In this document: positions 11,772 through 29,204 of the stretch, piece by piece
Layout of the letters: every line of letters begins with the position of its first letter
How positions within the stretch are numbered: the stretch's first letter is position 1
Assembly (NCBI GenBank): GCA_045533905.1
Contig: JAZSIR010000001.1
Location: forward strand, 7,617 to 71,616
Length of the DNA: 64,000 nt
Direction of reading: 5' to 3'
From: Clostridia bacterium
GTDB lineage: Bacteria; Bacillota; Clostridia; UMGS1883; UMGS1540
Made by a program: the position numbers and the translations under genes
Notes under the pieces: model-generated
What the model was told of the DNA's origin: nothing
What the model saw: only the letters and a program-made list of their open reading frames with translations
Databases searched by the model: none

Positions 11772-11804
11772 AAATAATAATAATTTAGAAAGAGGTAATT
11801 TATA

Positions 11805-12101
11805 ATGACTATCGAAAAGAACTTAAGCGGTACAGAACTTAATGTAAAGGTGTCAGGCAGACTTGACACAACAACCGCACCGGAACTTGAAGCAGAAGTT
11901 ATGGGCGCAATCTCAGGTGTAACAAAACTTGTACTTAACTTTGAAGCACTTGAGTACCTTTCATCTGCAGGACTCAGAGTACTGCTTCAGGTACAAAAGA
12001 TAATGAACAAGCAGGGTGAGATGATTATTAAGAACGTAAACGAAACAATCAATGAGATTTTTGAAGTAACAGGATTCATTGATATTCTGACGATTGAATA
12101 A
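11805..12101 (+). CDS. STAS-domain anti-sigma-factor antagonist, copy 2.
   Basis: 98 aa. LEYLSSAGLRVLL. Paralog of 6385..6681. Confidence 0.8.
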   Translation: MTIEKNLSGTELNVKVSGRLDTTTAPELEAEVMGAISGVTKLVLNFEALEYLSSAGLRVLLQVQKIMNKQGEMIIKNVNETINEIFEVTGFIDILTIE

Positions 12102-12144
12102 GGTGAACTCCAATGAACCAAACAAGTATTGGAGGGATATACCT

Positions 12145-14402: not shown

Positions 14403-14415
14403 AGGATTATTGCAA

Positions 14416-16602
14416 ATGAAGAACTTAAACAAAAAACTTTTGACCTTCGGTATAGTTTTGTGTATGCTTCTCTCGTGTTTTTCGGGAGTGGTATTTGCAA
14501 AGGATATCGAAACAATCGTTATTCTTTATGAAAACGATGTTCATTGTGCAGTAGAGGGTTATTCTAAACTTGCAGCAATGAAAAATGAATTATCAGAAGA
14601 TTATGAATATGTAGGCGTTGTATCCTCCGGCGACTTTGTTCAGGGCGGAACTCTTGGTGCAGTTTCTCGTGGTGAATACATAGTAAGCCTTATGAACCTT
14701 GTGGGATATGATGCCGTAACACTTGGTAATCACGAATTTGATTATAAGCTCCCACGCCTTGATGAACTTGCAGAATTGATGAACACCGAACCTATCTCTT
14801 GTAACTTTCAAAAGATAGGTGAAACTGAATCATATTTTGAGCCGTATTCCATCGTAACCTACGGTGATGTGGATATAGCATATATCGGTATCACAACACC
14901 ATCTACATTGTCCTCATCGTCACCTGCACAGTTTAAGGGTGAAAATGGTGAGTATATTTACACATTCAATGTAGATACCCTTTACGATGTGGTACAGGCA
15001 AGTATTGATTCTGCAAAGGAAGATGGTGCTGATTACATAATCGCCCTTTCTCATATTGGATATGAAGAAGATGAGCAGTATGAGGATGTTGTTGACTTAA
15101 TTGAAAACACATACGGATTTGATGTTGTTCTTGATGCTCATTCTCACTCTGTTATTGAAAATATGAAGCTGACCGATGAGGGCGGAAATGAGGTTGTTCT
15201 TACCTCAACAGGCACAAAGTTTGAAAATATCGGCAAGCTTACAATTTCAGGCGGTGAGATAACAACAGAGCTTATAGAAACTGAGAACTACACAAACACA
15301 GATACAACCGTTGATGCAAAACTTGCGGAAATAAACGAAGCATATTCTGCTCTCGGTAATCGCAAGATTGGTGAAAGCGAAATAGAGCTTATCACGAACG
15401 ATGCGGACGGAAACCGCCTTGTTAGGACAACAGAAACCAATCTCGGCAATTTGTGTGCAGATGCAATTAAAACAGTAACGAAAGCTGATATTGCCTATGT
15501 AAACGGCGGCGGAATCCGTGCACCGATTGAAATTGGCGAAGTATCGTTCAATGACATTTTTAGTGTTTTTCCATTTAACAATCAGATTGTTGTAGCAGAA
15601 ATGACAGGTCAGAAAATACGCGATATGCTTGAAATGTCACTTATGAATTATCCGGCAGAAGATGGCTCTTTCCCTCATGTTGCAGGACTAACATTTTCGG
15701 TTAATAAATCCATTCCAACATCTGTTAAAACAGACGAAAACACAGTTTTTACAGGCGTTGACGGTGAGTATAGAGTTTATGATATTAAAGTATTAAATGA
15801 AGACACAGGCGAATACGAGCCTATTAAACTCGACGGAACATACTCCTTTGCAAGCTTCAACTACTTTGTTTTAGACCAAGGCGGCGGTATGAGTATGTTT
15901 GACGGTGTAAAAATATTAAAGAATGACGGAATGCTTGATGTTGAAGCGTTAGAAACATACATCACAGAAAACCTTGGCGGTGTTATCGGCGAAGAATATG
16001 CAGAGGTAGATAACAGAATCAACTTTACAGACGGTGAAGATGCACTTAATAAGTTCACCGATTTGTCCGATGATGCTTGGTATAGTGATTCTGCAAAGTA
16101 TGTTTTGGAAAACGGTCTTATGAAAGGCGTAACAGATACCACCTTTGCACCAAACGAAAACTTAACAAGAGCAATGCTTGTTACAGTTCTTTACCGTGCA
16201 GAAAATGAACCTGCCACAAACCGCAGCATTCCTTTCTCTGATGTTGATACGGGTGCTTACTATGCAAGTGCAGTTTCTTGGGCAAAGCAGAACGGTATTG
16301 TAAACGGTGTAACAGAAACAGAATTTGCACCGAATGACAATATCACCCGTGAACAGATTGCGGCAATTATGCACAGATACGCACAGTACAAGGGTTATGA
16401 TGTCAGCGTAGGAGAAAACACAAATATTCTTTCCTATGACGATTTTGACAGCATTTCCGAGTATGCAATAGCTTCTATGCAGTACGCTTGCGGCAGCGGC
16501 TTGATTAAGGGTAAATCAGAAAGCACCCCCAATCCGCTTGATAATGCTACAAGAGCAGAAATAGCAGCAATACTTCACAGATTTATTGAAGTGAATAAGT
16601 AA
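14416..16602 (+). CDS. Cell-surface 5'-nucleotidase / bifunctional metallophosphatase with C-terminal SLH domains.
   Basis: Signal peptide, then a calcineurin-like N-domain (ILYENDVHC..GDFVQG..GNHEFD) and a 5'-nucleotidase C-domain. Three SLH-like repeats follow at the C-terminus (FTDLSDDAWYSDSAKYV..; FSDVDTGAYYASAVSWA..). The ORF track starts at a TTG at 14410; the ATG at 14416 is preferred. Confidence 0.8.
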   Translation: MKNLNKKLLTFGIVLCMLLSCFSGVVFAKDIETIVILYENDVHCAVEGYSKLAAMKNELSEDYEYVGVVSSGDFVQGGTLGAVSRGEYIVSLMNLVGYDAVTLGNHEFDYKLPRLDELAELMNTEPISCNFQKIGETESYFEPYSIVTYGDVDIAYIGITTPSTLSSSSPAQFKGENGEYIYTFNVDTLYDVVQASIDSAKEDGADYIIALSHIGYEEDEQYEDVVDLIENTYGFDVVLDAHSHSVIENMKLTDEGGNEVVLTSTGTKFENIGKLTISGGEITTELIETENYTNTDTTVDAKLAEINEAYSALGNRKIGESEIELITNDADGNRLVRTTETNLGNLCADAIKTVTKADIAYVNGGGIRAPIEIGEVSFNDIFSVFPFNNQIVVAEMTGQKIRDMLEMSLMNYPAEDGSFPHVAGLTFSVNKSIPTSVKTDENTVFTGVDGEYRVYDIKVLNEDTGEYEPIKLDGTYSFASFNYFVLDQGGGMSMFDGVKILKNDGMLDVEALETYITENLGGVIGEEYAEVDNRINFTDGEDALNKFTDLSDDAWYSDSAKYVLENGLMKGVTDTTFAPNENLTRAMLVTVLYRAENEPATNRSIPFSDVDTGAYYASAVSWAKQNGIVNGVTETEFAPNDNITREQIAAIMHRYAQYKGYDVSVGENTNILSYDDFDSISEYAIASMQYACGSGLIKGKSESTPNPLDNATRAEIAAILHRFIEVNK

Positions 16603-16620
16603 ATAGCAAAATGGCACTAA

Positions 16621-16650
16621 GGAGTGAGTCGAAAGGCTCACTCCTTTTAC
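16621..16650 (+). terminator. Rho-independent terminator ending the 16.6-kb plus-strand gene block.
   Basis: Stem ggagtgag/ctcactcc with an 8-nt loop, followed by TTTT. Confidence 0.7.
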
Positions 16651-16784
16651 ATACCCTCATATTAAAATATGGTCCACATTAATCAAAGAAAAGGACTTTG
16701 AAAAAACTTCGTAGACTTATGTCATCTTCTGTGGTATGTTTGTGTTGCCGAAAAGGTAAATACAAATTTAGGAGATGAAATTTT

Positions 16785-17339
16785 ATGAAGAAAAAAGTAT
16801 TATGTACGGCATTGGCAGTGACTATGTTGCTAACAACAACTGCATCGGCAACTGCAAAACCTTGGTGGCTCAGTAAATACCGAGTAACTTTCGACAATGA
16901 ACTTGGAATCGTAGGAAATGTAACCTTAACCTTCGCCTCAGACGGCGGTAGCTTTATCAGGCCAATAACCAAAAGATATGGCGAGAGCATCAGTCTTGAA
17001 AGTTATGTACCAACAAAATACGGTTACACATTCAAAGGATGGTTCACAGATCCAAGAACAAAGCAAAATCAGGTAACAACATTCAAATTCACAAAGCCTG
17101 ATGTGCTTTACGCTAAGTGGCAGCCTAACCCACAGGAGCCTATAAATCCGAATGACGAAATCATAGCAAAAGATACCTGCTACCTCACGGACGAAGAAAC
17201 AAAAATACGAAATGAAATTATAGAAGAAAAGAATAAGACATACATCGAAGGCTTCGGTTATGTAGCTCCAAGTAAAACAAAAACAATCATCGTAGACTCA
17301 GGCGGTGATATAAATAAAATGGTCGGCACAATGGAATAA
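16785..17339 (+). CDS. Secreted hypothetical protein with a Listeria-Bacteroides-type repeat.
   Basis: Signal peptide MKKKVLCTALAVTMLLTTTASA. The YGYTFKGWFTDP motif is typical of the Flg_new/List_Bact repeat. AT-rich context. Confidence 0.5.
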   Translation: MKKKVLCTALAVTMLLTTTASATAKPWWLSKYRVTFDNELGIVGNVTLTFASDGGSFIRPITKRYGESISLESYVPTKYGYTFKGWFTDPRTKQNQVTTFKFTKPDVLYAKWQPNPQEPINPNDEIIAKDTCYLTDEETKIRNEIIEEKNKTYIEGFGYVAPSKTKTIIVDSGGDINKMVGTME

Positions 17340-17355
17340 AAAGAATAACTTAAAT

Positions 17356-17396
17356 GGCGGTATGCTCGAGATTACCTCGAACATACCGCCGTTTTG
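17356..17396. terminator. Hairpin terminator between convergent genes.
   Basis: ggcggtatg ... cataccgcc stem followed by TTTT. Confidence 0.6.
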
Positions 17397-17400
17397 TATC

Positions 17401-18486
17401 TTATATTTCTTTCAGTAGCCTGATGGCTTCATCAAGTGAAATTTCTCCGGACTCGCCACGATCTTTAATATCCATAGCCAATGTACTCTGTTCAAGCCAC
17501 TTGGAATAATCCAATCCGCTTGATTTTCGCTTAGCCAATCGATCGTAAGTTCTGTCATATTCTTTTTTTATTGGAGACCTGAATTCATCTGAGTTTTCTT
17601 TTTTGTGAGCACCTACCTTGCTGCATGTCCTGCCTTTCGGATCGTTAGGAGCCACTCTGTTGCAATAGTGGGTATCATGACCTGTTGGCAAAAGAAAAAA
17701 ACGTTTGCAATTATGACATCTTTTCGGTGAGTGTTTAACATTTAATCCTCTGAACAGGTCTGAATTTAAAAAGCCGCCAATAGACCTGAAAATGACTCTT
17801 TCTGCCAATATATAATTTTCTTTGCAATCAGGATCAGGACAAGTGACATATTCAATATTTGCCGGCATTTCTGCTTTAAATGTAATTGCAGGATATTTCG
17901 GGATAAGAGATTCAAGATTTTGCTGTAATTCGCTATTATTCAGAAACTGATATATTGCGTGTGCAAAATGTGCAGGGGTTCTTGCAGTAACATTTTCTAT
18001 ATATAAATCAACAAATGCAGATGCATATATTTTAAAAATCAGTATTTCATCATTGATTGATAACAAGCCTACTAAAATTCTGTTTAATATGCTTCTGCTC
18101 TCGCTTTTGGGATGGGTTTCATATATTTCCCTGAACTCCGATATATATCTTCTTTTATCAAATTCAAAGCGGTCATATAAAGGCAGGCTAAGGATAACAT
18201 CTAATGCCTTGCTTAGATATGGAGCAAAGCCATCAAAACTGCATGATGATATAATCATTAAATTTGATTCGTATTCCCCATATAGTTTTTCTAGAAACGC
18301 TTTCCTTAAATTTGATAATACTGTTTTCAAATTATCAAGCTGTTCGTCAGATAGCTCCAGAATTTCAGTTGAAATCTGACCAAGCGAGACCTTTTCTTTT
18401 CCGATAATGACATAATCTTTATAAAATTGTGCCGTTATATATCCAAAATCAAATGGTTTTTCATCTAAACTTTTTATACTTGCCAT
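17401..18486 (-). CDS. Hypothetical protein with a Cys/His-rich, probably Zn-binding, C-terminal region. Island-encoded.
   Basis: The ORF track gives 17401..18507. Start chosen at MASIK, which has a GGAAGTGAG RBS. The C-terminal motif cluster is CPDPDC..CHNCKRF..HDTHYCNRV..C. The region is very AT-rich. Confidence 0.5.
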   Translation of the reverse strand: MASIKSLDEKPFDFGYITAQFYKDYVIIGKEKVSLGQISTEILELSDEQLDNLKTVLSNLRKAFLEKLYGEYESNLMIISSCSFDGFAPYLSKALDVILSLPLYDRFEFDKRRYISEFREIYETHPKSESRSILNRILVGLLSINDEILIFKIYASAFVDLYIENVTARTPAHFAHAIYQFLNNSELQQNLESLIPKYPAITFKAEMPANIEYVTCPDPDCKENYILAERVIFRSIGGFLNSDLFRGLNVKHSPKRCHNCKRFFLLPTGHDTHYCNRVAPNDPKGRTCSKVGAHKKENSDEFRSPIKKEYDRTYDRLAKRKSSGLDYSKWLEQSTLAMDIKDRGESGEISLDEAIRLLKEI

Positions 18487-18549
18487 ATACTCACTTCCAC
18501 GATACATATTTTATAATTCCACTACTTTTGAAAATGGCGGCAAAATCGA

Positions 18550-18578
18550 TTGACGCACATCTTGCGATATGTTAGAAT
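18550..18578 (+). promoter_or_regulatory. Sigma-70-like promoter for the recombinase operon.
   Basis: TTGACG, then 17 nt, then TAGAAT. About 240 nt of leader follow before the first ORF. Confidence 0.5.
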
Positions 18579-18794
18579 AGCCACACAACAAATTATACAC
18601 GATACAAATAAAAATGTCAATCGTGGAAATTGAACCTTGAAAACTTAATAGCCGAACCGCAAGGGATACATTCTCGGGGAAGTGTCGCCACGATATGAGC
18701 GCACCAAGAGATGAAAATACGATGTCGGTGTCAAACAAGGCAGGAGGTCAGGAACTGTAGCGGAAGTCGGTGCTAAAATAATTATATGAAGGGA

Positions 18795-18959
18795 ATGATG
18801 TTTATGAAATCTATGAATATAGAGATAGAAAAGGCTGTTGCCAAGGCTATGATTTTAAACCTGTTAAAAGCAAACCTTATAAGCGATGAGGAAGCAAACA
18901 AGCTGATAGATAAAGCCTTTGATGCATTAAGCGAGCCTTTAATAGAAAACTCAGCATAA
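18795..18959 (+). CDS. Small hypothetical protein of 54 aa upstream of the recombinase genes.
   Basis: MMFMKSMNIEIEKAVAKAMILNLLKANLISDEEANKLIDKAFDALSEPLIENSA. It is below the ORF-track size cutoff, and the call rests on an open frame only. Confidence 0.3.
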   Translation: MMFMKSMNIEIEKAVAKAMILNLLKANLISDEEANKLIDKAFDALSEPLIENSA

Positions 18960-19051
18960 TCTTTTAGTTTTTGTTTAATATTTGTCTGGATATATTAAGT
19001 TATTTGTGGTATTGTTGTCTTGAAAAAAATATGGAAAGGAGTGTGAGGCTG

Positions 19052-20593
19052 ATGTCAGAAGTAATTGTTATCCAAGGAAATCATACAAAAAACGAACCTG
19101 TGTTAAAGCGAGTATCCGCTTATGCCAGAGTAAGCTCTGCTTCAGACGAACAGCAATACTCCTTCCATAATCAGGTTCAGCACTTTACAAGCTTGATACA
19201 GGGAAATCCCGATTGGAAATATGTAGACATATATGCCGATGAAGGTGTAACCGGCACAAGAGAGGACAAACGCAGTGAATTCAACCGAATGATAAGAGAT
19301 GCCGAGGATGGACTGATGGACATTATCATTACAAAATCAGTCTCACGCTTCGGCAGAAATGTTTCAGAGTGCCTAAGAACAGTAAAACATCTCAAGGATA
19401 TTGGAGTTACCGTGATATTCGAAGAGGAAGGTCTTGATTCGGGAAAGCCTGCTGACTTTACAATGATATCTGTAAAAGCAGCAATGGCAGAACAGGAATC
19501 AATCTCTACTGCTGAGAACGGCAGAATGGCAAACCGCCAGAGAATGAAGATGGGTACATTTGTTCAAAGCAATCCTCCAATCGGTTATACATTAAACGGC
19601 ACGGAATTCGAGGTTAACGAGGAACAAGCCGATGTTATCAAACGAATATTTGCCGAATACCTGTCAGGAAGTGGTACAAGCAAAATTGCCGATGGGCTTA
19701 TGAAAGATAAAATTCCCAATAAGTATGGCAAGGTGCATTGGACACCGCAAAGTGTCAGCTATATCATAAATAACCCAAGATACAAAGGCGGTGCCCTGTT
19801 CCAGAAATCCTTTAAGACAGGATTTCCGTATAAGAAAAAGAAGAACACAGGCGAACTGCCGATGTATTATGCAGAGGATGCCAATATCCCCATAGTAAGT
19901 GCAGAAGACTTTGACAAAGCAGCCGAGCTTATGCAGACAAGGCGTGAAAAGCATGCCCAGGAAAACAACGAGAATGCAAGTATCTTTGCAAAGAAGATAT
20001 ATTGCAGGCACTGCGGTTCCACTTATCGATATAAAAATGGTACAGATACATGGGTATGCAGAACACACGATAAAGGCACAGACAAATGTCAGGCAATGCC
20101 TGTAAGCGAAGAAATGCTTAAAAAGGCATTTGTTCAAATGTATAATAAGCTGAAAGCAAATTATGAGCATATCCTTCTCCCGTTCTTAACACAGGTAGAG
20201 GCTATGAAGATAAACAAGGCAGAGCAAGATAGAATTGCTGATATCAACATGCAAATAGCACAGAATACAGAGCAGGTTTTATCGCTCCGAAGACTAAAGA
20301 GTCAGGAGCTGATAGAGCCTGCTTTCTATATTCAGGAGCTTAACCGCTTTGATAAGCAAACAATGGAACTTCGGAAAAAGAAAAATGCCATACTGCACAA
20401 CAACCGATATGATGACATTATCTCAAAGACCAGAAAAATCATAAGAGAAATGGAATCGGCTTGTGCAATAGGCAAATTCGATGCTGATAGCTTCAAAAAT
20501 CTTGTAAGCAGAATTGAAGCAGATAATGAAATAATAACCTTTATCCTCATAAACGGAATGGGGCTTGAGGTTAGCAAAAAGGAGGTGTTATAA
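19052..20593 (+). CDS. Large serine recombinase (resolvase catalytic domain, recombinase domain, zinc ribbon, coiled coil).
   Basis: Catalytic motif AYARVSSASDEQ and the resolvase core (DVYADEGVTGT..SRFGRN). The ORF track begins at 18971. A start at 19052 (MSEVIV) or 19031 is likelier; the upstream extension is AT-rich and lacks an RBS. Confidence 0.85.
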   Translation: MSEVIVIQGNHTKNEPVLKRVSAYARVSSASDEQQYSFHNQVQHFTSLIQGNPDWKYVDIYADEGVTGTREDKRSEFNRMIRDAEDGLMDIIITKSVSRFGRNVSECLRTVKHLKDIGVTVIFEEEGLDSGKPADFTMISVKAAMAEQESISTAENGRMANRQRMKMGTFVQSNPPIGYTLNGTEFEVNEEQADVIKRIFAEYLSGSGTSKIADGLMKDKIPNKYGKVHWTPQSVSYIINNPRYKGGALFQKSFKTGFPYKKKKNTGELPMYYAEDANIPIVSAEDFDKAAELMQTRREKHAQENNENASIFAKKIYCRHCGSTYRYKNGTDTWVCRTHDKGTDKCQAMPVSEEMLKKAFVQMYNKLKANYEHILLPFLTQVEAMKINKAEQDRIADINMQIAQNTEQVLSLRRLKSQELIEPAFYIQELNRFDKQTMELRKKKNAILHNNRYDDIISKTRKIIREMESACAIGKFDADSFKNLVSRIEADNEIITFILINGMGLEVSKKEVL

Positions 20594-21457
20594 ATGGCAA
20601 ACCGTTACCTTGCATTCGGCTACAAAATAGCTGACGGCAAACTTTGTGTTGAAGAAACTGAGGCAGAACTTGTAAAGGCGACCTTTACACTGTATGCGGC
20701 AGGAAAATCCTACAGCCAAATTGCTGAAAGATTTACCTTAAGCGGAATCAGATACAACATTGATTTTGACAAATGGAATAAAAATATGGTAAAGCGGATA
20801 ATTGAAAACGATAAATATATCGGCAGGAACGGTTATCCGCAAATCATAGAAGAAAAGCTCTATAACAAGGCGAACAAGACAAGAATTTCAAAAGTCATAA
20901 ATAAACCGCCTGAAAAAGCAGAGCTTGACAACTTCCTTCGGTCTCATTCGGAATGCCCGGTTTGCAGCTCCCCGATAAAAAGGCAGAATCAATGCTACGG
21001 CGAGAATAGGTCTGTGGCATATAAATGTACCAATTCTGTATGCCCGGCGAAATCTGTTAAAGAGAATCGACTTGTAAATCTCATAACGGAATTGCTTAAC
21101 GAAATTGCAAATGATTTAAGTCTTGCAGATGAACCTGTTATAACCGCAATTCCCGATGATGAACTGACAGACGATATGGCAAACGATATCTACATAAAAA
21201 TGCTGACGGAATACGATAAGGATGAAGTGCTTGCAGACATATATGAGCTTGCAAAATTCAAATTCCGAAACAGTATCAAAACAGATATGAGTGCAGTTAC
21301 AGAAAGAATAAAAAAAGAGCTTTGCAAGTATGGGATACTTACAGAGCCTCATCTTCCGCTTATGCAGAAAATTATATCAAAATTCTATGTAGGCGGTCAG
21401 GAAGAGCTTTCTATACTGCTTACCAATGGAAAATTAATAACAAGGAGTGTGAATTAA
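20594..21457 (+). CDS. Recombinase-domain / zinc-ribbon protein that lacks the N-terminal serine-recombinase catalytic domain.
   Basis: Recombinase-domain signature (YLAFGYKIADGKLCVEETEAELVKATFTLYAAGKSYSQIAE) and a Cys ribbon (CPVCSSP..C..CTNSVCPAK). It has its own AAGGAGGTG RBS and is not a frameshifted continuation of the upstream gene. Confidence 0.7.
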   Translation: MANRYLAFGYKIADGKLCVEETEAELVKATFTLYAAGKSYSQIAERFTLSGIRYNIDFDKWNKNMVKRIIENDKYIGRNGYPQIIEEKLYNKANKTRISKVINKPPEKAELDNFLRSHSECPVCSSPIKRQNQCYGENRSVAYKCTNSVCPAKSVKENRLVNLITELLNEIANDLSLADEPVITAIPDDELTDDMANDIYIKMLTEYDKDEVLADIYELAKFKFRNSIKTDMSAVTERIKKELCKYGILTEPHLPLMQKIISKFYVGGQEELSILLTNGKLITRSVN

Positions 21458-21459
21458 AG

Positions 21460-23064
21460 ATGGCAAATGTAATCGAAATACCTGCAACAAAATCATATTT
21501 CGGGCATAGTGCAAAGCGAGTCCTGAATGTGGGTGCTTATGCGAGAGTCAGCACCGAGGCGGAGCAACAAGCAAAAAGCTTTGAAACTCAGGTTGAACAC
21601 TATACCAAACTGATCAAAGAAACTACCGGTTGGAAATTTGTAGATGTATATGGCGATGAAGGTATCAGCGGAACCTCTATATACAACCGACCAGAGTTTC
21701 AGAGAATGATGAATGATTGCAGAAAAGGCAGGCTGGACTTAATAATAATTAAATCAGTATCAAGATTCGGCAGAAATTCCGCCGAGAGCTTACAATGTAT
21801 CAGAGAACTTAAGGATTTAGGTGTCGGAGTAATATTTGAAAAGGAAGGTATCAATACCCTCAACTATACGACCGAGATGTTCATTGCACTGCATACCATA
21901 TTCGCTCAATCCGAAAGTGAGTCGATGAGTGAAAATATAAAAATGGGCAGAAGTTACAGATACCGTGAGGGTAAGTGCTGCTATAACTTTAACGGAGTAT
22001 ACGGCTTCAGTCAGGACGATGAAAAAAACATATCAGTGGAAATCGGCAAAGCAATCAATGTCAGGTTCATCTTCGACTGCTTCATAAAAGGTATGAGCAT
22101 AGAACAAATTGTCAATGCACTTGCCGAAAGAGAAATCCCCTCTCCGAGAGGTAAAGAAAGATGGTCGCCCGGCTCAGTGGAAAGAATACTTAAGAATGAA
22201 AAATATGCAGGTGATGTTCTGACCTCAAAGACATTAACTCTTGATCCAATCTCAAAGAAAAAGGTAAAGAACACAGGTCAGGCTCCGCAGTATTATATCA
22301 GAGACCATCATCCGCCAATCGTAGAACGAGAACTGTTCGACAGTGTACAAGAGGAAATTAGCCGACGTGGATGTATCAAAAAGTTTGATAAAAAACAAAG
22401 CTATGGAAAATACAGCGGGAAATTTCCTTACAATGACTTAATATTCTGTGGTGAGTGCGGTGCCAAATACAGACGAACAGAATGGAAAACCCGTAGCGGT
22501 GATAAGAAATATGTGTGGCGATGCCTGAACAGAATTCAGAACGGACAAGATTGCTGTAAGAATTCTCCTTCCATCAACAATAACTTTATGAATGAGGTTA
22601 CGCTCGAAGCTATCAATGCGATATACACAAGTAGAAAAAGAGTAAAGGACATATTAAAAAGCTCAATCGCCTCTCTACTCGGGGATACCGAACAGCCAAA
22701 GATAAGTGCAAATATGGAAAAGCTTAATCTAATGAGCGACAGAATGCGTGAGGCTATATACCAAAATGCTAACGGTGAAATATCAACGGACGAGCTTGAC
22801 AGAATATGTCTGGAAGTAAAGATGGAATCGCAAAGACTGCGTCAAGAGAATAAGGAATATGAGATGGAGAGAAAGATGAAATCAACCGAGTCATCTAAGC
22901 TGAAGCTTATCTTCAAAGCCATTGATGGTATGGAAGATAAGGTGAGCGAGATTGATACACCTCTCATTCGAAGCATCATCGAAAGATACGAGGTTGTGTC
23001 AAAGAAAAAGATGATCATATGGTTCATCGGCGACATACCTTATGAGGTTGACCTACCGAAATAA
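21460..23064 (+). CDS. Large serine recombinase.
   Basis: AYARVSTEAEQQ, then VYGDEGISGT..SRFGRN, plus the recombinase domain and zinc ribbon. The start at 21460 follows an AAGGAG RBS. The ORF track's 21322 start overlaps the upstream gene. Confidence 0.85.
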   Translation: MANVIEIPATKSYFGHSAKRVLNVGAYARVSTEAEQQAKSFETQVEHYTKLIKETTGWKFVDVYGDEGISGTSIYNRPEFQRMMNDCRKGRLDLIIIKSVSRFGRNSAESLQCIRELKDLGVGVIFEKEGINTLNYTTEMFIALHTIFAQSESESMSENIKMGRSYRYREGKCCYNFNGVYGFSQDDEKNISVEIGKAINVRFIFDCFIKGMSIEQIVNALAEREIPSPRGKERWSPGSVERILKNEKYAGDVLTSKTLTLDPISKKKVKNTGQAPQYYIRDHHPPIVERELFDSVQEEISRRGCIKKFDKKQSYGKYSGKFPYNDLIFCGECGAKYRRTEWKTRSGDKKYVWRCLNRIQNGQDCCKNSPSINNNFMNEVTLEAINAIYTSRKRVKDILKSSIASLLGDTEQPKISANMEKLNLMSDRMREAIYQNANGEISTDELDRICLEVKMESQRLRQENKEYEMERKMKSTESSKLKLIFKAIDGMEDKVSEIDTPLIRSIIERYEVVSKKKMIIWFIGDIPYEVDLPK

Positions 23065-23074
23065 CGGCAGGTCC

Positions 23075-23106
23075 TTTTTACAAGAAATTTTCAAAAAGGC
23101 CTTGTA
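23075..23106. repeat. Imperfect inverted repeat downstream of the last recombinase gene. Candidate recombinase binding or att site.
   Basis: tttacaag..(16 nt)..cttgtaaa. A further cttgtaaa-like copy and a 10-bp perfect palindrome (gaataaatct / agatttattc) lie at about 23127-23155. Confidence 0.35.
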
Positions 23107-23246
23107 AAAAATATAGTTTTATGGTAGAATAAATCTTGTAAAAGAGATTTATTCTGCCTTTGGAATTGATAAGGGTAAAACCTTGAAACCCGCTTGAAAT
23201 CAAGCAAAAATTAATGTGGCAGTAAAATCATATCGTTCTTACACGT

Positions 23247-23280
23247 CGGAGCAAAGTACGCTTTGCTCCGTTTTTCTTTT
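23247..23280 (+). terminator. Rho-independent terminator.
   Basis: ggagcaaag-tacg-ctttgctcc stem followed by TTTTTCTTTT. Confidence 0.65.
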
Positions 23281-23432
23281 ATAAGAAAAACATTCGCCTA
23301 CTTCCTCTCCCCTCCTTTTCGCAAAAGGTCACGTTCAAGTCGGCTATTCGCTTGTAAACGCGCTCATAACGCCTTTTTTCACTACCAACCTTTTGCGAGT
23401 GTGCCTTCGGCACGATCTGTATTGTTATGTAT

Positions 23433-23470
23433 AAAAAGGGCAGATTTTATAGAAATCTGCCCTTTTTCTT
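23433..23470. terminator. Bidirectional hairpin terminator at the 3' end of the polyvalent-protein gene.
   Basis: A-run, then gggcagattt-tata-gaaatctgccc, then T-run. Confidence 0.6.
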
Positions 23471-23509
23471 ATTTTTCTATTTGCTTTTTCACAAGGCTTT
23501 CGTCCCATC
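23469..23509. repeat. Direct repeat copy A. Duplicate of the 3' end of the acyl-CoA synthetase gene.
   Basis: About 87% identical over about 40 nt to 27576-27616. Both copies encode ESLVKKQIEK-stop, and all four differences are synonymous. Confidence 0.7.
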
Positions 23510-26500
23510 CATATTCTTTAATATATGTATCTGCCTCTTTTAGGGCCTTTTTGTCTGTGTAGGCATCATACGAGAAGATACCGTCCTCGACCATTTTCTC
23601 AATCGTCGGTAGCGCTTCGTCAGGGGTTGCCTTGGCTTCAAGGATTGTGCGAACGGTCTGCGATACTTTCTTGTTTTTTCCTGTTTTCTGAGGCACTTGT
23701 ATGTCTCTGTGCGGTTTTTCTCCGCTTGGGATTGCGCCGTACCTTTCTATAAGCTCGTTGTAAAGTTCAGTACTTACGTGCCCTTTCTCTACATACTTTG
23801 CCAACTTGCGTTTGGCGGCCTCGTCCCCTTTTTGCAAGCCTTGAATGGTGGCAACATATTCCCTCTCCGAGAGCATGCCTTTGAGAGAAAAATCACTCTT
23901 GACTTTTTGTTCGGGATGTGCTACACTCTTGTTAAGGTCAGCACTTGTGTGCCCTGCCTCAGCATCTGTATTGATGCTTGCAGGGAAAGTGTTGGCCGTT
24001 TCTTTTTCCCAAACCCTGTGCACCCAGAATTTGTTTTTCTGCGGTGATTTTTTAATATCTAGGCGGATGGTAACGTCTTTTCCGTCGACCTCCAGCGTAT
24101 GCTCGATGTACGCAAATTTTTTATTATCGCTGTTTCCGTATTGGTTTTGAACATTATCAGCAACAAGACGTCCTTTCTCGATGATTTCTGGTAATCTCCT
24201 TATCGTAGCAAGCTTTGTAATTTTCTTATTCTTACCGAGACGTGCATAATTTTTCAAATTAAATGTCTCGTCGATTCCGCTTTTATTTGTTTCAATAATC
24301 ATACCGGAATCTTCGTTGACGTCTACTCTTTTTCGCTTCTCGGTATCTGTAAAAAAGTTTTCCCCGAGAAGAGTTTTTAGCACTTGTCTTTGCACGTGAA
24401 TGTAATCCCCAGGCGCGTCAATCCCAAAACTTTCAAAGGTGCTTTTAACAAACTCGTCCGAATAGTTGCTCTCACGCCTCGCGGGGACGCTTTCAACCGC
24501 TTTTATATAGTCGGAGTCTTTGAGAGAAAAATCACTCTTGACAATTTTTTGGGGGTGTGATATATTATCCCTAGAGTAGTTCTCTTTAACGTCTTGGACG
24601 TACGCCTTGCGGATTTCATGCAAATCAGCGAGATATTGAGAACTACTCTGTTTTTTATGTATAGCATCAATCAAGCCATACAGGTTTGGAATACTATCTA
24701 TCCCCGTTTTTACCATTTGCTTGTTAATAAGAAGTTTTTCTCTGTTATATTCCGTTGTTATTGCTTCGACATAATAAATCACATCACCCGGCATTACTTT
24801 TACATAAATCAAACCCGGATCACCATTTGCGTTTGTTTTGTAAAATACTTTATCGTAATTTTCAACAATATACGGAATTAGCTCAACATCTGCTTCGGTA
24901 ACAGGGTATTTTTCATTTGTTTTTTTGCCGTGGGAGTTCTTGATATGCCGAATATCATTATCGCGCAACGCATGAGAATAACCCGATATATCCACATCAG
25001 AAGATACTTCATTTATCAAATCCCTTCCAACCTTTAGGAATTTAATGTAAGATTTTTCATTATCGTTTAGATAGGCTTTTTCTATGTACCGGTTGATGTC
25101 AGATTGCGTAACCTCAAAATCAAACACTTTATCCGCATATCCTAATGTCTTCAAGGAAAAGTCCACACCGCCCTCTGGAGCGGTGTTCTTTTGTCCGTCT
25201 ATTCTCTTGAGTGAATAGCTCTTTTCTTCCGATTCTCTGAAGAGATTTTCGAGGACATTTCTAAAAGCTCGGCTTCCGTTGCGTTGGGATTGTCTCGGCA
25301 AAACTCCAACATTTTGATTGTGTCTTCCGCCTCCCAGGTTTCGAAGATTATTTTGACTACTGTTGACATTTTGCAACCAACTTCCTTGAGATACCCTTTG
25401 AGCAAAACTTGGTTTTCCGTTAATACCCTTGCCATCTTCTTCGTCCTCCAATAAATCAATTAAAATATCTAATTCAAAGCTTCCGTCATCGCCTTTTCTT
25501 TCGTAGAGGATTGTAGGATGTTCTGGGGTTTCCGTGCTGTATATGGCAAACAAAGCTTCTCCGTCAATTCTGCCTTTATACCAACATCCAACCGTATCTG
25601 CGATTCTTTTAGGTTCGTGATTCTCAACCTGCCGAATCCAGTCTTCCAGCATTTTGAACTGCGTTGCGTTCAAATCTGTGCGCCATTTTAACGAATAGCT
25701 TGTATTTCCATTATACTCCGCTCCCATGTTTTTTTCAAGAGTATCGGAGGAATTCTCTTTTTTGAGAGAAATTTCATTCTTGACAGAATTTGAATTTTGT
25801 GGTATATTGTCATTAGAAACACTATCCCGTGTAGCCTGTCTTTCGGCAGGCAATCTGGTCATTCTTTCGAGAAGACCAATCTCGGCGGTAGTGTTTTCTT
25901 CAATCCCAACAATATCGTATAGGTATTTGTTGCCATCAGAAGCATTCCTAATCAACAGCTCGACATCAAAAGCTCGTACCTTTGTTATCTTTCCTCGATT
26001 ATCTTTTATCGGGAAAGCAAAGGAATTAGCATAACGATACATACCATACTTCGCATCCTTATTATGTGTGTGCTGCGTCTTTTCCCACCTGCGATTCGTA
26101 GCTGTTTCTATCAATTCTCCAAAGCCGTCAACAGCTTTATTTTTACCTCTTGCGGCGGTGCGATTAACCCTACGGAGAAAAGTGGTGTACTTCGAATGCG
26201 TGTACTCTTGCGGCAAATCCTCGCCAATGTAGACCTTCTGCCCACTTTCTATAATCGTATAAACTTCGCCTATATGTTGTGCAATGTAGCCTGCAACAGC
26301 TTGATGGCTGTTTAATTGCTTGTTGGTCAGTCCACTTTCTTCAATCCATACAAAGCTCTTGCCATCAACATTTTTCAAGCTAAAGTCTACGCCGTCCTCT
26401 GTGTCGGTGTTTTTTTGTGCCTCTGCGGTCTGTTTAGTATGAGCCTTTGCTTCCACCGCCTTTTTGTTTTCCACAGCCTTTGCGACAGCAGTCTCAAACA

Positions 26501-27566
26501 TATCGCGAAGACTTGTGATTTCGTCAAGCTTTGGCTGAATCTTTGCTTTTTCTTTGGCGCTCTTGCCTGCAAGAAAATCACGAATTTTCCTAATCATCTC
26601 GGCAAGATACTCAATGTACTTCCGCAAGCCTTGCTTTGCCTTTTCGTCCGTGCCGTTGATGATGCTGTCAATAGCCTTATGGAATCGCGCCTCATCGTTG
26701 CCGTAAAGGTAGAGAATGTTGTTTGCAGAAACTTCTTCCATTGCCTTTGCAAGAGATATTTCCTCGCCCTGTGCGGCGTATGCACTTCGTTTTTGGTCTG
26801 CAACGGTAAATATAGACGGCTCATTGCCGGCAATGTGATTATACATCGCATACACAAACGCGCTGCCTTCTTCAGGGGCAAGGTCGACAACTCTATGCAG
26901 CGCTATTTCGTGCGCCGCATGGAAGACAATAGATACCTTCTGCCCGCCCACTTCTCTTTCAAAATCGAAGTCAATAGGCACTTCCCCCGTTTGCCTGTTG
27001 TACTCGGCGTTGCCTTTTAGGCCCTTTGCCATATACGCCTTTACGCCAAGTCCTTCTGCTAAAAGATTGAGCGTTGCAACCTCGCTTTGTTTAACATCGC
27101 TCGGCAGGTTTTCCGCAAGAACGCCGCTTTCCATATTTACAACTGCATTTCTAAACCTTTCTTTGGCGGCGAGGTCTTCCATTTTTCTGTCCATCTGCCC
27201 TGCCGTGAACGCATCTTCTTGTGCTTTGGATATAAATACGTCCTTGCCTTTTTTAACATTCAAGTCCGGTTGCTTAAAGCCTGTCATGTACGATGCCTTG
27301 ACCTCTTCCAGCACTTTGTTAAAGGTTGCCCCGTCTGCATTCGAATAATTGGCCACAAGTTTCGCCCCTTCCTCGCCAAACCCCGTGACCTTTCTTACCT
27401 CGTCGGCGGTTATCTCCACGCCGTTCTCGGTGAGGACATCTAGTGTTTCGCTGCTTACGATTCCTCTTCTGCGGTTTTCAAGAAGGGTGTAACCGTCTAC
27501 TCGATTTTTTCTACCGCGCCCATTGCCTTCCTTATACGCAAAAAGGCTGTGAAACCTAGGTTTCAC
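23469..27566 (-). CDS. Giant multi-module protein of the 'polyvalent protein' type found in conjugative elements and phages, with repeated module-boundary motifs and nuclease/toxin-like modules.
   Basis: 1365 aa with a GTG start. The D/Y-FSLK motif recurs four to six times (VDFSLKNVDG, VDFSLKTLGY, SDFSLKDSDY, SDFSLKGMLS, YSLKWRTD, YSLKRIDG). Between the recurrences are segments such as HALRDNDIRHIKNSHGK..VIYYVEAITTEY, with a small RNase/RelE-like flavour. No similarity to housekeeping families. It ends with the same 9 aa (SLVKKQIEK) as the adjacent synthetase. Confidence 0.55.
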   Translation of the reverse strand: MKPRFHSLFAYKEGNGRGRKNRVDGYTLLENRRRGIVSSETLDVLTENGVEITADEVRKVTGFGEEGAKLVANYSNADGATFNKVLEEVKASYMTGFKQPDLNVKKGKDVFISKAQEDAFTAGQMDRKMEDLAAKERFRNAVVNMESGVLAENLPSDVKQSEVATLNLLAEGLGVKAYMAKGLKGNAEYNRQTGEVPIDFDFEREVGGQKVSIVFHAAHEIALHRVVDLAPEEGSAFVYAMYNHIAGNEPSIFTVADQKRSAYAAQGEEISLAKAMEEVSANNILYLYGNDEARFHKAIDSIINGTDEKAKQGLRKYIEYLAEMIRKIRDFLAGKSAKEKAKIQPKLDEITSLRDMFETAVAKAVENKKAVEAKAHTKQTAEAQKNTDTEDGVDFSLKNVDGKSFVWIEESGLTNKQLNSHQAVAGYIAQHIGEVYTIIESGQKVYIGEDLPQEYTHSKYTTFLRRVNRTAARGKNKAVDGFGELIETATNRRWEKTQHTHNKDAKYGMYRYANSFAFPIKDNRGKITKVRAFDVELLIRNASDGNKYLYDIVGIEENTTAEIGLLERMTRLPAERQATRDSVSNDNIPQNSNSVKNEISLKKENSSDTLEKNMGAEYNGNTSYSLKWRTDLNATQFKMLEDWIRQVENHEPKRIADTVGCWYKGRIDGEALFAIYSTETPEHPTILYERKGDDGSFELDILIDLLEDEEDGKGINGKPSFAQRVSQGSWLQNVNSSQNNLRNLGGGRHNQNVGVLPRQSQRNGSRAFRNVLENLFRESEEKSYSLKRIDGQKNTAPEGGVDFSLKTLGYADKVFDFEVTQSDINRYIEKAYLNDNEKSYIKFLKVGRDLINEVSSDVDISGYSHALRDNDIRHIKNSHGKKTNEKYPVTEADVELIPYIVENYDKVFYKTNANGDPGLIYVKVMPGDVIYYVEAITTEYNREKLLINKQMVKTGIDSIPNLYGLIDAIHKKQSSSQYLADLHEIRKAYVQDVKENYSRDNISHPQKIVKSDFSLKDSDYIKAVESVPARRESNYSDEFVKSTFESFGIDAPGDYIHVQRQVLKTLLGENFFTDTEKRKRVDVNEDSGMIIETNKSGIDETFNLKNYARLGKNKKITKLATIRRLPEIIEKGRLVADNVQNQYGNSDNKKFAYIEHTLEVDGKDVTIRLDIKKSPQKNKFWVHRVWEKETANTFPASINTDAEAGHTSADLNKSVAHPEQKVKSDFSLKGMLSEREYVATIQGLQKGDEAAKRKLAKYVEKGHVSTELYNELIERYGAIPSGEKPHRDIQVPQKTGKNKKVSQTVRTILEAKATPDEALPTIEKMVEDGIFSYDAYTDKKALKEADTYIKEYGWDESLVKKQIEK
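27548..27565. repeat. Perfect 18-bp palindrome gtgaaacc-TA-ggtttcac at the island/synthetase junction, overlapping the polyvalent gene start.
   Basis: Self-complementary with a central TA dinucleotide. It encodes MKPRFH on both strands. Confidence 0.6.
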
Positions 27567-27575
27567 ATCCTTTTC

Positions 27576-27616
27576 TTATTTCTCGATTTGCTTTTTTACG
27601 AGGCTTTCGCCGCAGT
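27576..27616. repeat. Direct repeat copy B. The actual 3' end of the acyl-CoA synthetase gene.
   Basis: See copy A. Confidence 0.7.
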
Positions 27617-29204
27617 ATTTTTCGCGGAGTTTCGGTTTTTCGATTTTGCCGGTGGGGTTGCGCGGTACATCGGCGAAGATGATGCGGCGCGGTCTTTTAT
27701 ATCGTGGAAGTGCCTGACAAAACGCTTCGATATCTGCTTCCGTGCAGGTGCTGCCGGGCTGCAGTTCGATAATGGCCGCGGCAATCTCGCCGAGTCTGTC
27801 ATCCGGAAGGCCGATAACGCCCACGTCCTTAATCTCGCGGTTTGTGCGGAGAAAATCTTCAATCTGCACAGGGTAGAGGTTTTCGCCGCCTGTGATGATA
27901 ACGTCTTTTTTGCGGTCTACGAGGAAAATGAAGCCATCCGCATCTTCCATGGCCATATCGCCTGTGTAGAGCCAGCCGTCGTGCAGTACCGCATTTGTGG
28001 CCACCTCATCGCGATAATAGCATTTCATAACGCCGGGGCCTTTTACTGCAAGTTCCCCCACTTCGCCACGAGAAACGGTGCTTCCGTTTTCGTCAATAAT
28101 CTTCGTTTCCCAAAGATGACCGGCAATACCGATGGCGCCCACCTTATGTATATTCTCTACGCCAAGATGTACACAGCCGGGGCCGATAGATTCGGAAAGC
28201 CCGTAATTGGTATCATATGCGTGATTCGGGAAACGCTCACGCCAGCGCTTTATAAGGCTCGGCGGTACCGGCTGTGCGCCGATATGCATGAGCCGCCAAG
28301 AAGCAAGGTCATATTCTTCTATATTGACATCGCCGCGGTCAATCGCATCGAGAATATCCTGCGCCCACGGCACGAGAAGCCATACGATAGATGCCTTTTC
28401 CTCGGAAGCGGCTTTTAAAATCCACTCCGGCTTTACGCCGCGAAGAAGCACTGCTTTGCCGCCGACCAGAAAGCTTCCGAACCAATGCATCTTCGCGCCG
28501 GTATGATACAGCGGCGGAATGCAGAGGAACACATCGTCCTTCGTTTGCCCGTGGTGTTTATTTTCCGTAATGCACGAGGATATGAGGCTTCTGTGTGCAT
28601 GCAAAATAGCCTTGGGGAAGCCTGTGGTGCCGGAAGAAAAGTAGATGGCCGCATCGTCCTCTTCCGAAAGCGGTGCATCCGTAAAGTCTGCACACATTTC
28701 GGGGAGGCGCCCGTTATAATCTACGGCAAAATCGGGTGTATCCTCACCCACAAAGATATATTGTTTCACGCCGGGCATATCGCCCTTGGCCGCGGTTACG
28801 CGTTCTGTAAACTCAGGGCCAAAGATCAAAACATCCACCTCAGCAAGACCCGAGCAATAGGAAATTTCATCTGCTGCATAGCGGAAATTCATAGGCACGG
28901 CCAGTGCGCCCGTTTTGAGAATACCAAAATAGATGGGAAGCCACTCGAGGCAGTTCATAAGAAGGATTGCAACCTTATCCCCCTTCTTGATGCCAAGCGC
29001 TGTGAGCATATTGGCAAAGCGGCAGGCGCTTTCGTCAAACTCGCGCCATGTGATTTCGCGGCGCCCTGCATTTTTTGCGGCCGCTTCCACTAGCTCAAAA
29101 TCGCGCCAAGCCTGCTTTTCACGCACCTCGGGGCTGATTTCTACAAGCGCCGCACAGCTACCGTACTTCCTTGCATTTTCTCTTAAAACCTCAGTAATAA
29201 CCAT
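27576..29204 (-). CDS. AMP-dependent acyl-CoA synthetase / long-chain fatty-acid-CoA ligase.
   Basis: AMP-binding motif YFSSGTTGFPKAILHAH, then YHTGAKMHWF, then GWLYTGD..VDRKKD. Start placed at the ATG with a GGAAGGA RBS (MVITEV); the ORF track begins 8 codons earlier. Confidence 0.8.
   Translation of the reverse strand: MVITEVLRENARKYGSCAALVEISPEVREKQAWRDFELVEAAAKNAGRREITWREFDESACRFANMLTALGIKKGDKVAILLMNCLEWLPIYFGILKTGALAVPMNFRYAADEISYCSGLAEVDVLIFGPEFTERVTAAKGDMPGVKQYIFVGEDTPDFAVDYNGRLPEMCADFTDAPLSEEDDAAIYFSSGTTGFPKAILHAHRSLISSCITENKHHGQTKDDVFLCIPPLYHTGAKMHWFGSFLVGGKAVLLRGVKPEWILKAASEEKASIVWLLVPWAQDILDAIDRGDVNIEEYDLASWRLMHIGAQPVPPSLIKRWRERFPNHAYDTNYGLSESIGPGCVHLGVENIHKVGAIGIAGHLWETKIIDENGSTVSRGEVGELAVKGPGVMKCYYRDEVATNAVLHDGWLYTGDMAMEDADGFIFLVDRKKDVIITGGENLYPVQIEDFLRTNREIKDVGVIGLPDDRLGEIAAAIIELQPGSTCTEADIEAFCQALPRYKRPRRIIFADVPRNPTGKIEKPKLREKYCGESLVKKQIEK

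Follow-up and report, generated by a model that had tools for sequence, protein, structure and literature searches.

Introduction

Large serine recombinases are prized tools for genome engineering, and their choice of target is normally purely sequence-based. In the transposons Tn4451 (TnpX) and Tn5397 (TndX) a single recombinase is present, and an outward promoter could act across the joint of the circle. Elements of the staphylococcal cassette chromosome (SCC) type carry two different large serine recombinases side by side, together with cargo and without transfer genes of their own, and form composite arrays at one site. Here we analyze a 64-kb stretch of DNA from a Clostridia bacterium (assembly GCA_045533905.1, contig JAZSIR010000001.1), hereafter the window, in which a conserved module with three genes of the serine recombinase family and a 1365-aa open reading frame (ORF) of the polyvalent type lie downstream of an acyl-CoA synthetase gene. 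All coordinates refer to the window, and the loci L0xx and proteins P0xxx are related contigs and homologues that were read for comparison.

The recombinases of the window resemble those of Tn4451, Tn5397 and the phage serine integrases in their Resolvase-Recombinase-zinc ribbon architecture and in their position at an element end, but those systems have a single recombinase, whereas three genes of the family are found here. We know of no description of terminator-adjacent targeting for clostridial serine-recombinase transposons or for phage serine integrases. An insertion apparently set by a terminator or hairpin, rather than by target sequence, is instead reminiscent of class C group II introns and of palindrome-targeting insertion sequences, although the former rely on a ribozyme and a reverse transcriptase, the latter use DEDD or HUH transposases, and the locus described here encodes serine recombinases. 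The likeness to SCC lies in the two side-by-side large serine recombinases, the cargo and the lack of dedicated transfer genes; unlike SCC, the window shows no rlmH target and no flanking integration-site repeats, and it adds a third recombinase family gene (rec2), a 51-aa ORF, a DUF6076 gene and a Flg_new gene.

Serine-integrase triplets have been described in integrative and conjugative elements (ICEs) of Streptococcus, where all three proteins carry a Resolvase domain and the elements disrupt genes such as mutT, traG and hsdM and contain conjugation modules (Ambroset et al. 2016, PMC4701971). These triplets, which are site-specific and associated with tiny direct repeats, share with the genes described here the arrangement of three tandem, co-oriented genes at an element extremity. 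They differ in that here the middle gene lacks the Resolvase domain, the target is intergenic at the edge of a terminator, and no conjugation module is present in at least 23 kb. Polyvalent proteins, in turn, are multi-domain giants of phages and conjugative elements that combine PBECR-type RNase and LPD domains, are encoded among virion or conjugative-transfer genes and so enter the host together with the DNA of the invader (Iyer et al. 2017, PMC5512222). The ORF in the window likewise joins PBECR3 and LPD3 in one polypeptide, but it is truncated at both ends, lies outside a phage or conjugative context and has a piece of a host gene as its C-terminus. As in elements that target the 3' ends of genes and supply a replacement terminus, diverged, orthologue-like repeats flank this insert; unlike those elements, it has no integrase inside.

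Results

A conserved six-gene module with an exact right end

The region from 16650 to 27575, which an earlier note made from the sequence alone had read as one AT-rich accessory island at the 3' end of the synthetase gene, is probably a composite of two unrelated accessory DNA pieces adjoining that host gene. The first piece is a conserved module of six genes and 6.6 kb (approximately 16650-23243), encoding a Flg_new protein, a DUF6076 protein, a 51-aa ORF and the recombinase family proteins rec1, rec2 and rec3. The module and its immediate borders comprise the following features:

16620-16647, plus strand: terminator after the nucleotidase gene, GGAGTGAGTCGAAAGGCTCACTCC then TTTT, just outside the module
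16650-16706, plus strand: left boundary zone, from left-end alignments, with CATATTAAAATATGGTCCACATTAATCAAAGAAAAGG common to the window, L096 and L100
16785-17339, plus strand: Flg_new (Listeria-Bacteroides repeat) protein with N-terminal signal peptide (PF09479, E=1.9e-11; TIGR02543)
17401-18507, minus strand: DUF6076 protein with Cys/His-rich C-terminus (PF19553, E=3e-37)
18550-18578, plus strand, and 18620-18592, minus strand: divergent promoter pair from a consensus scan (TTGACG-17-TAGAAT and TTGACA-17-TATAAT, respectively)
18647-18776, plus strand: 130-nt non-coding leader core, 93-96% identical across module types
18804-18959, plus strand: 51-aa ORF heading the recombinase operon, called likewise as a 51-aa gene in all related loci
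19052-20593, plus strand: rec1, 513 aa, with catalytic motif YARVSS and Resolvase, Recombinase and Zn_ribbon_recom domains; start set by homologue length and ribosome-binding site
20594-21457, plus strand: rec2, 287 aa, with Recombinase, zinc-ribbon and coiled-coil regions and no Resolvase domain
21460-23064, plus strand: rec3, 534 aa, with catalytic motif YARVST (PF00239, E=1.6e-31)
23065-23243, plus strand: non-coding right terminus, 81-95% identical between types over the last 150 nt
23247-23270, plus strand: intrinsic terminator from a terminator scan, beginning 4 nt past the module end
23244-23463, no strand: 220-bp spacer with facing terminators (plus strand, 23247-23270; bidirectional, 23433-23467)

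Three lines of comparison fix the right end of the module to the base. Six copies that are 99.7-100% identical to one another (L085-L090) part exactly after ...GTAAAATTATATCGTTATTACA (TTACA), every module copy closes with ...ATATCGTNNTTACA, the window doing so with ...ATATCGTTCTTACA at 23243, and the BLASTN match between the window and L085 runs no further than 23243, with a matching end in L096-L102. The right terminus holds an outward promoter (TTGTAA-17-TAGAAT, 23102-23130), the motif GTAAAAT-N13-CA and a hairpin with an 11-bp stem (23126-23155) that shows one compensatory change between types.

This end abuts a terminator in the window and in most other copies. A hairpin was counted as strict if its stem comprised 9 bp or more, all of them Watson-Crick pairs, its loop 3-10 nt, and the 12 nt that follow 5 or more T. 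Such a structure starts between -1 and +4 nt at 5 of the 8 independent junctions, compared to 0.18% of all positions in these sequences (binomial P~1e-12); a lax definition yields 3/8 junctions against a background of 2.9%. The L096 and L100 junctions present imperfect hairpins of about -20 kcal/mol, and only that of L086 is weak. The right flanks following TTACA in the window and seven other loci have no common sequence consensus. As judged from these alignments, the 5' edge of a terminator appears to be the characteristic target context of the family. The 220-bp spacer to the right of the module shows no similarity to any related locus fetched and looks like ordinary convergent intergenic DNA downstream of a synthetase 3' end.

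Small length differences were also observed next to several junctions. Within the first ~450 nt of the right flank, L096/L097 and L098/L099 differ by the presence or absence of ~100 bp in a direct repeat that starts at the junction, and L087, L088 and L090 differ in how many CACTCTT heptads follow the terminator. L096 has a tRNA-Met gene ~570 nt away from its junction.

The polyvalent ORF and the duplicated synthetase terminus

The second piece lies between the spacer and the synthetase gene, and is described by these features:

23464-23507, minus strand: distal repeat copy (ESLVKKQIEK, stop, GAAAA), in frame with the end of the 1365-aa ORF
23469-27566, minus strand: polyvalent-type ORF, 1365 aa, with Pfam domains PBECR3 (residues 857-941) and LPD3 (residues 1081-1179)
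27571-27614, minus strand: proximal repeat copy, the working synthetase 3' end, followed by the terminator at 27548-27567
27576-29204, minus strand: AMP-binding acyl-CoA synthetase by Pfam, 542 aa (P0207, singleton), a host core gene

The description of this ORF as a 1365-aa multi-module protein agrees with its RNase-like PBECR3 domain, its LPD3 domain and its repeated inter-domain ...(F/Y)SLK linkers. Its homologues are mostly 2100-2400 aa long, and its relatives carry MuF_C, ART-PolyVal, PBECR and LPD domains. Residues 31-60 of the window ORF align at ~570-900 of the long homologues, and residues up to ~1359 align at ~1240-1548; since both ends align to the interior, the ORF is without either end of the full-length protein. 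On this alignment evidence, we take it to be an internal fragment of phage-type polyvalent proteins lying outside the module. The ORF begins 10 nt after the synthetase stop codon, inside or behind the synthetase terminator (27548-27567); a promoter scan revealed no promoter of its own, and no ribosome-binding site was found. Its closest relatives (P0002, P0003 and P0006) are lone genes among housekeeping genes, one of which adjoins tRNA-Met, and a more distant relative (P0029) resides in a prophage beside a holin, so that three of the four relatives examined are solo genes. No flanking repeats were detected around the solo genes of L081-L083, and the PDB sequence search and PADLOC returned nothing for the window ORF.

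The direct repeat of the synthetase terminus spans 44 nt at 86% identity, with a spacing of 4107 bp, and includes the last 10 synthetase codons. The two copies present four coding differences, all of them synonymous third-position changes, and the distal copy agrees with the L001 synthetase end at 33/36 positions, compared to 31/36 for the synthetase of the window itself. These two observations indicate that the copies behave like orthologous gene ends, and not like a fresh target duplication. The ESLVKKQIEK terminus is also present in the synthetase orthologues of L001-L003 and L091. The fusion falls at a GW(D/T)(E/Q)SL microhomology, where polyvalent proteins read GW(T/S)QSL... and the synthetase reads ...GESLVKK. 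The 4107-bp segment contains the polyvalent ORF only, with no integrase within it, and the synthetase end without the polyvalent fragment would read ...TACTGCGGCGAAAGCCTTGTGAAAAAGCAAATAGAAAAATAAGAAAAAGGGCAGATT.

The synthetase gene and the divergent EPSP_synthase-fold gene (29349-30596) form a pair that is kept in L001-L003. A genome scan with the synthetase yielded 80 loci, the best of them 82-83% identical and sharing just this pair, and a relative with 86% identity has different neighbours on both sides. Exact look-ups located the synthetase and the polyvalent protein on no other contig, and sliding identity along the synthetase gene, at 64-84%, gave no information on whether its 3' part stems from a donor.

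These data bear directly on the view that a single island (16650-27575) was integrated at the synthetase 3' end through the serine recombinases, leaving a replacement terminus at its right end, which we regard as highly improbable. In its favor, the gene-terminus repeat is real, the recombinases are adjacent, and the synthetases of relatives lack this DNA downstream. The conserved module end at 23243, however, coincides with neither repeat copy and stops 220 bp short of the nearer one. The duplicated terminus brackets the 4.1-kb ORF alone and not the island, a search near 16650 revealed no third copy of the synthetase terminus, and serine recombinases need a 2-bp core, not a 44-bp repeat. In addition, none of the related modules in the loci read (L085-L090 and L096-L102) carries a polyvalent gene, and the homologues of the ORF are solo or prophage genes, which sets the giant ORF apart from the module. 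Finally, the compositional break falls at 23243, not at 16650. The single-island model is hence left without support, although the earlier interpretation is borne out in part; the region comprises at least two separate things. The empty site that the note expected, with the nucleotidase terminator beside the synthetase 3' end, is likewise doubtful.

The linkers of the polyvalent genes (...NIS....VK.DFSLK) also contain, on the antisense (plus) strand, an extended -10 promoter-like motif, TTGACN-N13-15-TGNTAYAYT. It is found at 23899-23927, 24538-24566 and 25780-25808 in the window, occurs 3, 1, 1 and 4 times in four genes (those of the window, L081, L082 and L083) and is absent from the sense strand. 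The -35 hexamer of L083 falls in another codon register and is followed by a spacer of 18 nt, against 17 nt elsewhere, a shift that hints at DNA-level conservation of the antisense motif. The L083 gene (10001-15820) is a solo 1939-aa polyvalent gene with internal tandem modules ~700 nt apart and 97% identical, and it converges with galK, whose 3' end its stop overlaps.

Recombinases, leader and accompanying genes

By their domains and catalytic motifs, rec1 and rec3 are assigned to the large serine recombinases. Both carry PF07508 and PF13408; rec1 matches the Resolvase domain PF00239 (E=1.4e-27) and the integrase family phrog_95 (E=3e-114), and rec3 retrieves over 4000 homologues at E<=1e-20, with 534-aa proteins at 97% and 83% identity nearest to it. 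Rec2 combines PF07508 with a CxxC...C zinc motif and aligns to the C-terminal two-thirds of rec1 and rec3. Its length is kept, with a 287-aa gene in L085, L096 and L100 and a cluster of 58 members, and the middle recombinase gene lacks the Resolvase domain in every copy examined. The three genes are thus members of the serine recombinase family, as the earlier note proposed, with the qualification that rec2 has no catalytic domain. In the comparison with Tn, ICE and SCC-type recombinases suggested there, the large serine recombinase architecture was recovered, whereas a streptococcal triplet and genes of ICEs or integrative and mobilizable elements were not. The best NCBIfam matches of rec1 and rec3 are CcrB, CcrA and CcrC, at 126-136 bits against cut-offs of 700-900 (best scores of 135.8 bits against 900 for CcrB and 81.3 against 700 for CcrA), and these scores lie so far under the cut-offs that rec1 and rec3 are not Ccr proteins.

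Termini and leader are better conserved than the module genes: the rec genes are 68-83% identical between module types that share a 93-96% identical leader core. The remaining genes broadly fit their first description. The secreted List_Bact-repeat protein corresponds to the signal-peptide Flg_new protein, which is the first gene of the module and occupies the equivalent position in L085, L096, L100 and L102. The Cys-rich hypothetical protein is the DUF6076 protein, whose gene is divergent from the recombinase operon and is present in every module copy, with 29-42% amino acid identity between types; it had no match in the PDB sequence search, PHROG or PADLOC. The promoters were confirmed, with a leader of ~220 nt rather than 240 nt before the recombinase operon, and the small ORF is likewise present but measures 51 aa, not 54, according to its homologues.

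A Pfam search with the 51-aa ORF produced just a sub-threshold CtsR_C match; the ORF could be a small regulator or a directionality factor. The leader core has a weak match in the distant module of L094. Comparison of the leader and of the 12-32 kb interval with Rfam yielded nothing credible, the fold of the leader is unremarkable in stability (z-score -0.40), and five sequences provided too little covariation. Control of expression or directionality is the most likely role of the leader core, the 51-aa ORF and the DUF6076 protein.

The module is mosaic with respect to its types. The Flg_new gene of the window is 90% identical to the L096 type (4973-5527) and 74% to the L085 type, and its rec genes are ~82% identical to those of L085 and ~70% to those of L096.

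Recurrence of the module and composition of its flanks

The module was found in at least three other lineages: L085-L090 (P0088, rec3 83% identical), L096-L099 (P0132) and L100-L102 (P0115 and P0094), the latter two at ~60%. All modules read present the same six genes in identical order and orientation, with four distinct neighbours recorded on the left and eight or more on the right. Flg_new is preceded by the SLH-nucleotidase gene in the window, by a PIG-L/GtrA glycosylation cluster in L085, by cobalamin salvage genes in L096, and by prephenate dehydrogenase, DAHP synthase and EamA genes in L100. These changing contexts, and the absence of the region downstream of the nearest synthetase relatives (82-86% amino acid identity), bear out the proposal that it is accessory and recombinase-associated.

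Within one module type, in contrast, the left flank is constant and the right flank is variable. Four right flanks are seen in L085-L090, and L100 and L102 are 96% identical over left flank and module and unrelated in their right flanks. This asymmetry extends to abundance, with left-flank proteins present on 49-220 contigs and right-flank proteins on 2-9 contigs (L085, L086, L100 and L102).

The same asymmetry is apparent in the window, where the DNA to the left of the module contains the following features:

1-16649, plus strand: left block (Pfam, GC content at third codon positions [GC3], cluster sizes) with amino-acid ABC transporter genes, two SDF symporters, HD-CE, purine-nucleoside phosphorylase (PNP) and adenine deaminase genes
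within the left block: a SpoIIE phosphatase with HATPase kinase
14410-16602, within the left block: SLH 5'-nucleotidase

GC content is 0.38-0.46 from base 1 to ~27.5 kb, compared to 0.47-0.52 over 28-64 kb and to 0.49-0.50 in the nearest relatives of the synthetase locus, and GC3 is mostly 0.33-0.43 in the left genes against 0.49-0.60 in every right-side gene; overall it is ~0.35 for 1-23243 and ~0.53 for the right side. Of the proteins recovered in a collection of 15 billion, all ten from the left block and module (seven of them from the left block) fell in 90%-identity clusters of 42-1051 members, whereas the synthetase, the polyvalent ORF and six other right-side proteins were all singletons. 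GC3 and cluster size both shift at 23243, and together with the flank pattern they place the break between widely seen and only-here DNA at this position, not at 16650. The low-GC block of the earlier note is indeed low in GC, but only against the right flank; since GC content is low from base 1, composition sets no boundary at 16650. Nor does the nucleotidase terminator qualify as a left boundary on these grounds, given that the nucleotidase gene and the DNA to its left share the foreign composition and abundance of the module.

The left block is compositionally foreign and widely seen elsewhere, and it may be cargo of, or DNA hitch-hiking on, the recombinase module. Either the module closes a foreign block of at least 23 kb (1-23243), or the contig of this metagenome-assembled genome (MAG) is chimeric. 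An exact look-up of the PNP protein found it only on contigs of up to 1.4 kb. We consider it quite unlikely that the left block and module of an abundant low-GC organism were joined, via the shared module, to a rare chromosome of ~0.49 GC during assembly. The breaks in GC, GC3 and cluster size do fall exactly at the end of a high-identity shared mobile element, as such a misjoin would have it; even so, for such a join to assemble, the module end at 23243 has to be present in the rare organism as well, and the pairing of abundant left and rare right DNA is found again in independent assemblies made with different assemblers from different samples. Four long contigs with the module 15-35 kb from one end and 95-180 kb of unique DNA beyond it are also more in keeping with a bounded insert than with repeated misjoins.

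The variable right flanks raise the alternative that the module is a resident capture platform, similar to integrons or to composite SCC, with 23244-27570 as one captured unit. This would fit the sharp conserved boundary with its outward promoter, the constant left side and the frequency of defence or mobile functions in the variable right-hand DNA (Fic, ADP-ribosylglycohydrolase-HTH, Hachiman with a methylase, and a serine recombinase). We nevertheless hold it to be very unlikely. Integrated elements present attL and attR attachment sites, which are not usual substrates for further serine-recombinase integration, and no second att-like site bounds the right-hand segments within the 3-10 kb available. 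Host core genes, moreover, lie just 4.3 kb to the right, and the segments start with a terminator that would block the outward promoter.

Several neighbouring arrangements were recorded along the way. In L102, a defence island with HamA and a DEAD/ResIII helicase (Hachiman-like) and a DNA methylase abuts the module (9900-17632), and the L100 copy, 96% identical to that of L102, abuts CitMHS, F420_ligase-domain and EF-G-like genes. In L089, a different large serine recombinase (DUF4368, 11869-13509) lies in opposite orientation 87 bp from the right end of the module, so that one recombinase element stands directly against another. L100 and L102 also contain, at ~2930-3020, an apparent degenerate second copy of the left end, ~200 nt upstream of the intact one and following the EamA terminator; the alignment is weak, and this copy may be the scar of an earlier insertion at that spot.

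Within the window, the gene directly upstream of PNP in the foreign left block (6702-7595) encodes an HD-CE protein (PF24391, E=1e-34) with weak likeness to Cas3-HD and to a DRT UG24 model. Both the strand bias of the genes and the cumulative GC skew change sign at ~23000-27500, where the foreign block ends; left of this interval almost every gene is on the plus strand, and the minus strand carries most of those to its right. The host part of the window also includes a 2226-aa ORF (51263-57943, minus strand).

The left boundary of the mobile unit

DNA similarity to L085 begins at 16707, and CATATTAAAATATGRTNNACATTAAYCAAAGAAAA lies directly upstream of the Flg_new promoter region in the window, L096 and L100 despite their unrelated upstream genes. 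Two positions are possible for the left junction on this alignment. In the first, the CA at 16650-51 would mirror the CA at 23242-43, a reading that goes with a perfect 10-bp inverted repeat (CCACATTAAT at 16674-83 and ATTAATGTGG at 23210-19) located 22 nt from the CA at each end. In the second, the junction would be the CA at 16677-78, with TAAAAT-N8-CA as an attB-type half-site opposite TAAAAT-N13-CA on the right; a 5-bp offset is typical of attB versus attP half-sites of serine integrases. The ...TTACA end, the CA at both candidate junctions, the inverted repeat and the N13/N8 spacing are compatible with attP-attB recombination through a 2-bp crossover at imperfect dyad half-sites. An ungapped scan for terminal inverted repeats had found nothing, and the 10-bp repeat emerged later from the anchored alignment.

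With either junction, the 6.6-kb module would be a complete element. Its circle joint, if formed, would read ...ATATCGTTCTTACA joined to TTAATCAAAGAAAAGG or TACCCTCATATTAAAA, and the empty site after module loss, if any, would read AAAATATGGTCCACA or CTCCTTTTACA joined to CGTCGGAGCAAAGTACGC.

It is accordingly worth weighing, as a doubtful but serious alternative, that the module alone is mobile and was inserted between the nucleotidase terminator and a second terminator, in intergenic DNA that was already adjacent to the synthetase gene, the left block being native or an older, separate acquisition. The left-terminal sequence shared by the window, L096 and L100 in front of unrelated genes speaks for it, as do the 10-bp inverted repeat or the paired N8 and N13 half-sites. 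In L096, furthermore, the stop codon of the upstream gene lies inside the left-terminal sequence, and a terminator follows the module. A two-ended insertion, on the other hand, does not predict the constant left and changing right flanks of L085-L090 and L100/L102, and the left block shares the low GC3 and high abundance of the module whereas the right side does not.

The reading that we favor, in which the module closes a foreign block adjoining an unrelated polyvalent fragment, has to be set against several observations. The shared left-terminal sequence and its att-like features argue for an autonomous 6.6-kb element; the invariant left flanks beside changing right flanks, and the abundance data, speak for a larger unit. 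The source of the window is a 146-kb MAG contig, in which a misjoin would give a like break. The searched collections contained no conspecific genome and no empty site, and insertion is consequently deduced from between-species comparison and from the other copies. Finally, a Pfam search of ORFs of at least 150 aa over 1-27.5 kb detected no conjugation, mobilisation or phage genes.

Related searches gave a concordant picture. The called genes of the related loci include no type IV secretion system, coupling protein or relaxase domain, although an oriT could still be present, and a PHROG search of the window recovered integrase families only, with no structural, packaging or lysis genes. No close relatives turned up in 2.9 million viral contigs (IMG/VR) or in 50,697 GenBank phage records; viral and metagenome scans with rec3 and DUF6076 recovered distant ones only, and plasmid and phage BLAST produced one distant match each.

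Discussion

Taken together, these data suggest the following scheme. The first piece (~16650-23243) would be a site-specific integrative module run by large serine recombinases. Rec1 and rec3 would be the catalytic subunits, probably acting as a hetero-oligomer by analogy with CcrA/CcrB, and rec2, which is without a catalytic domain, most likely adds DNA binding or site choice. The right arm, GTAAAAT-N13-CA, is predicted to recombine at the CA immediately 5' of an intrinsic terminator hairpin, so that transcription from the outward promoter would be stopped by the borrowed host terminator; in the circle predicted to form on excision, that promoter would direct transcription into Flg_new. In this locus, a foreign block no shorter than 23 kb (1-23243), with the module at its right end and its left end beyond the window, would have entered the intergenic DNA downstream of the synthetase gene.

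The second piece (23464-27614) would be a non-autonomous remnant of a phage-type polyvalent gene, without recombinase, promoter or native termini, that reached the synthetase 3' end along with a second, orthologue-like copy of its last 10 codons. It may descend from a decayed integrative element or prophage with a replacement terminus, or from homology-anchored illegitimate recombination.

A bolder extension of this scheme, which we put forward as an unlikely though stimulating idea, is that these Clostridia elements recognize one sequence-specific half-site together with the foot of a terminator hairpin, use the 130-nt leader as an RNA or DNA cofactor or regulator, and undergo one-sided recombination that drags or exchanges large blocks. 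Recognition of the hairpin foot would make target choice partly structure-directed, and one-sided recombination would account for the constant, abundant left and the variable, rare right sides.

We regard the module as a fresh twist on serine-recombinase mobile DNA that has already been described, and the polyvalent fragment as ordinary debris of decay whose junction is instructive. Readers of this contig should bear in mind that the two halves of the 64-kb window may not belong together, one being foreign to the other or mis-joined with it. If landing at the foot of a terminator is true, it would be a new way to place DNA where it is least harmful; if two catalytic subunits do act with a conserved paralogue limited to DNA binding, they would provide a new paradigm for serine recombination by several subunits. 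The family apparently sits at the edges of large metabolic-gene blocks that vary between Clostridia strains, a point of interest for gut and rumen genomics. The blocks at the module edges, which encompass purine salvage and transport, cobalamin salvage, aromatic amino-acid synthesis and surface glycosylation, bear on how such traits move.

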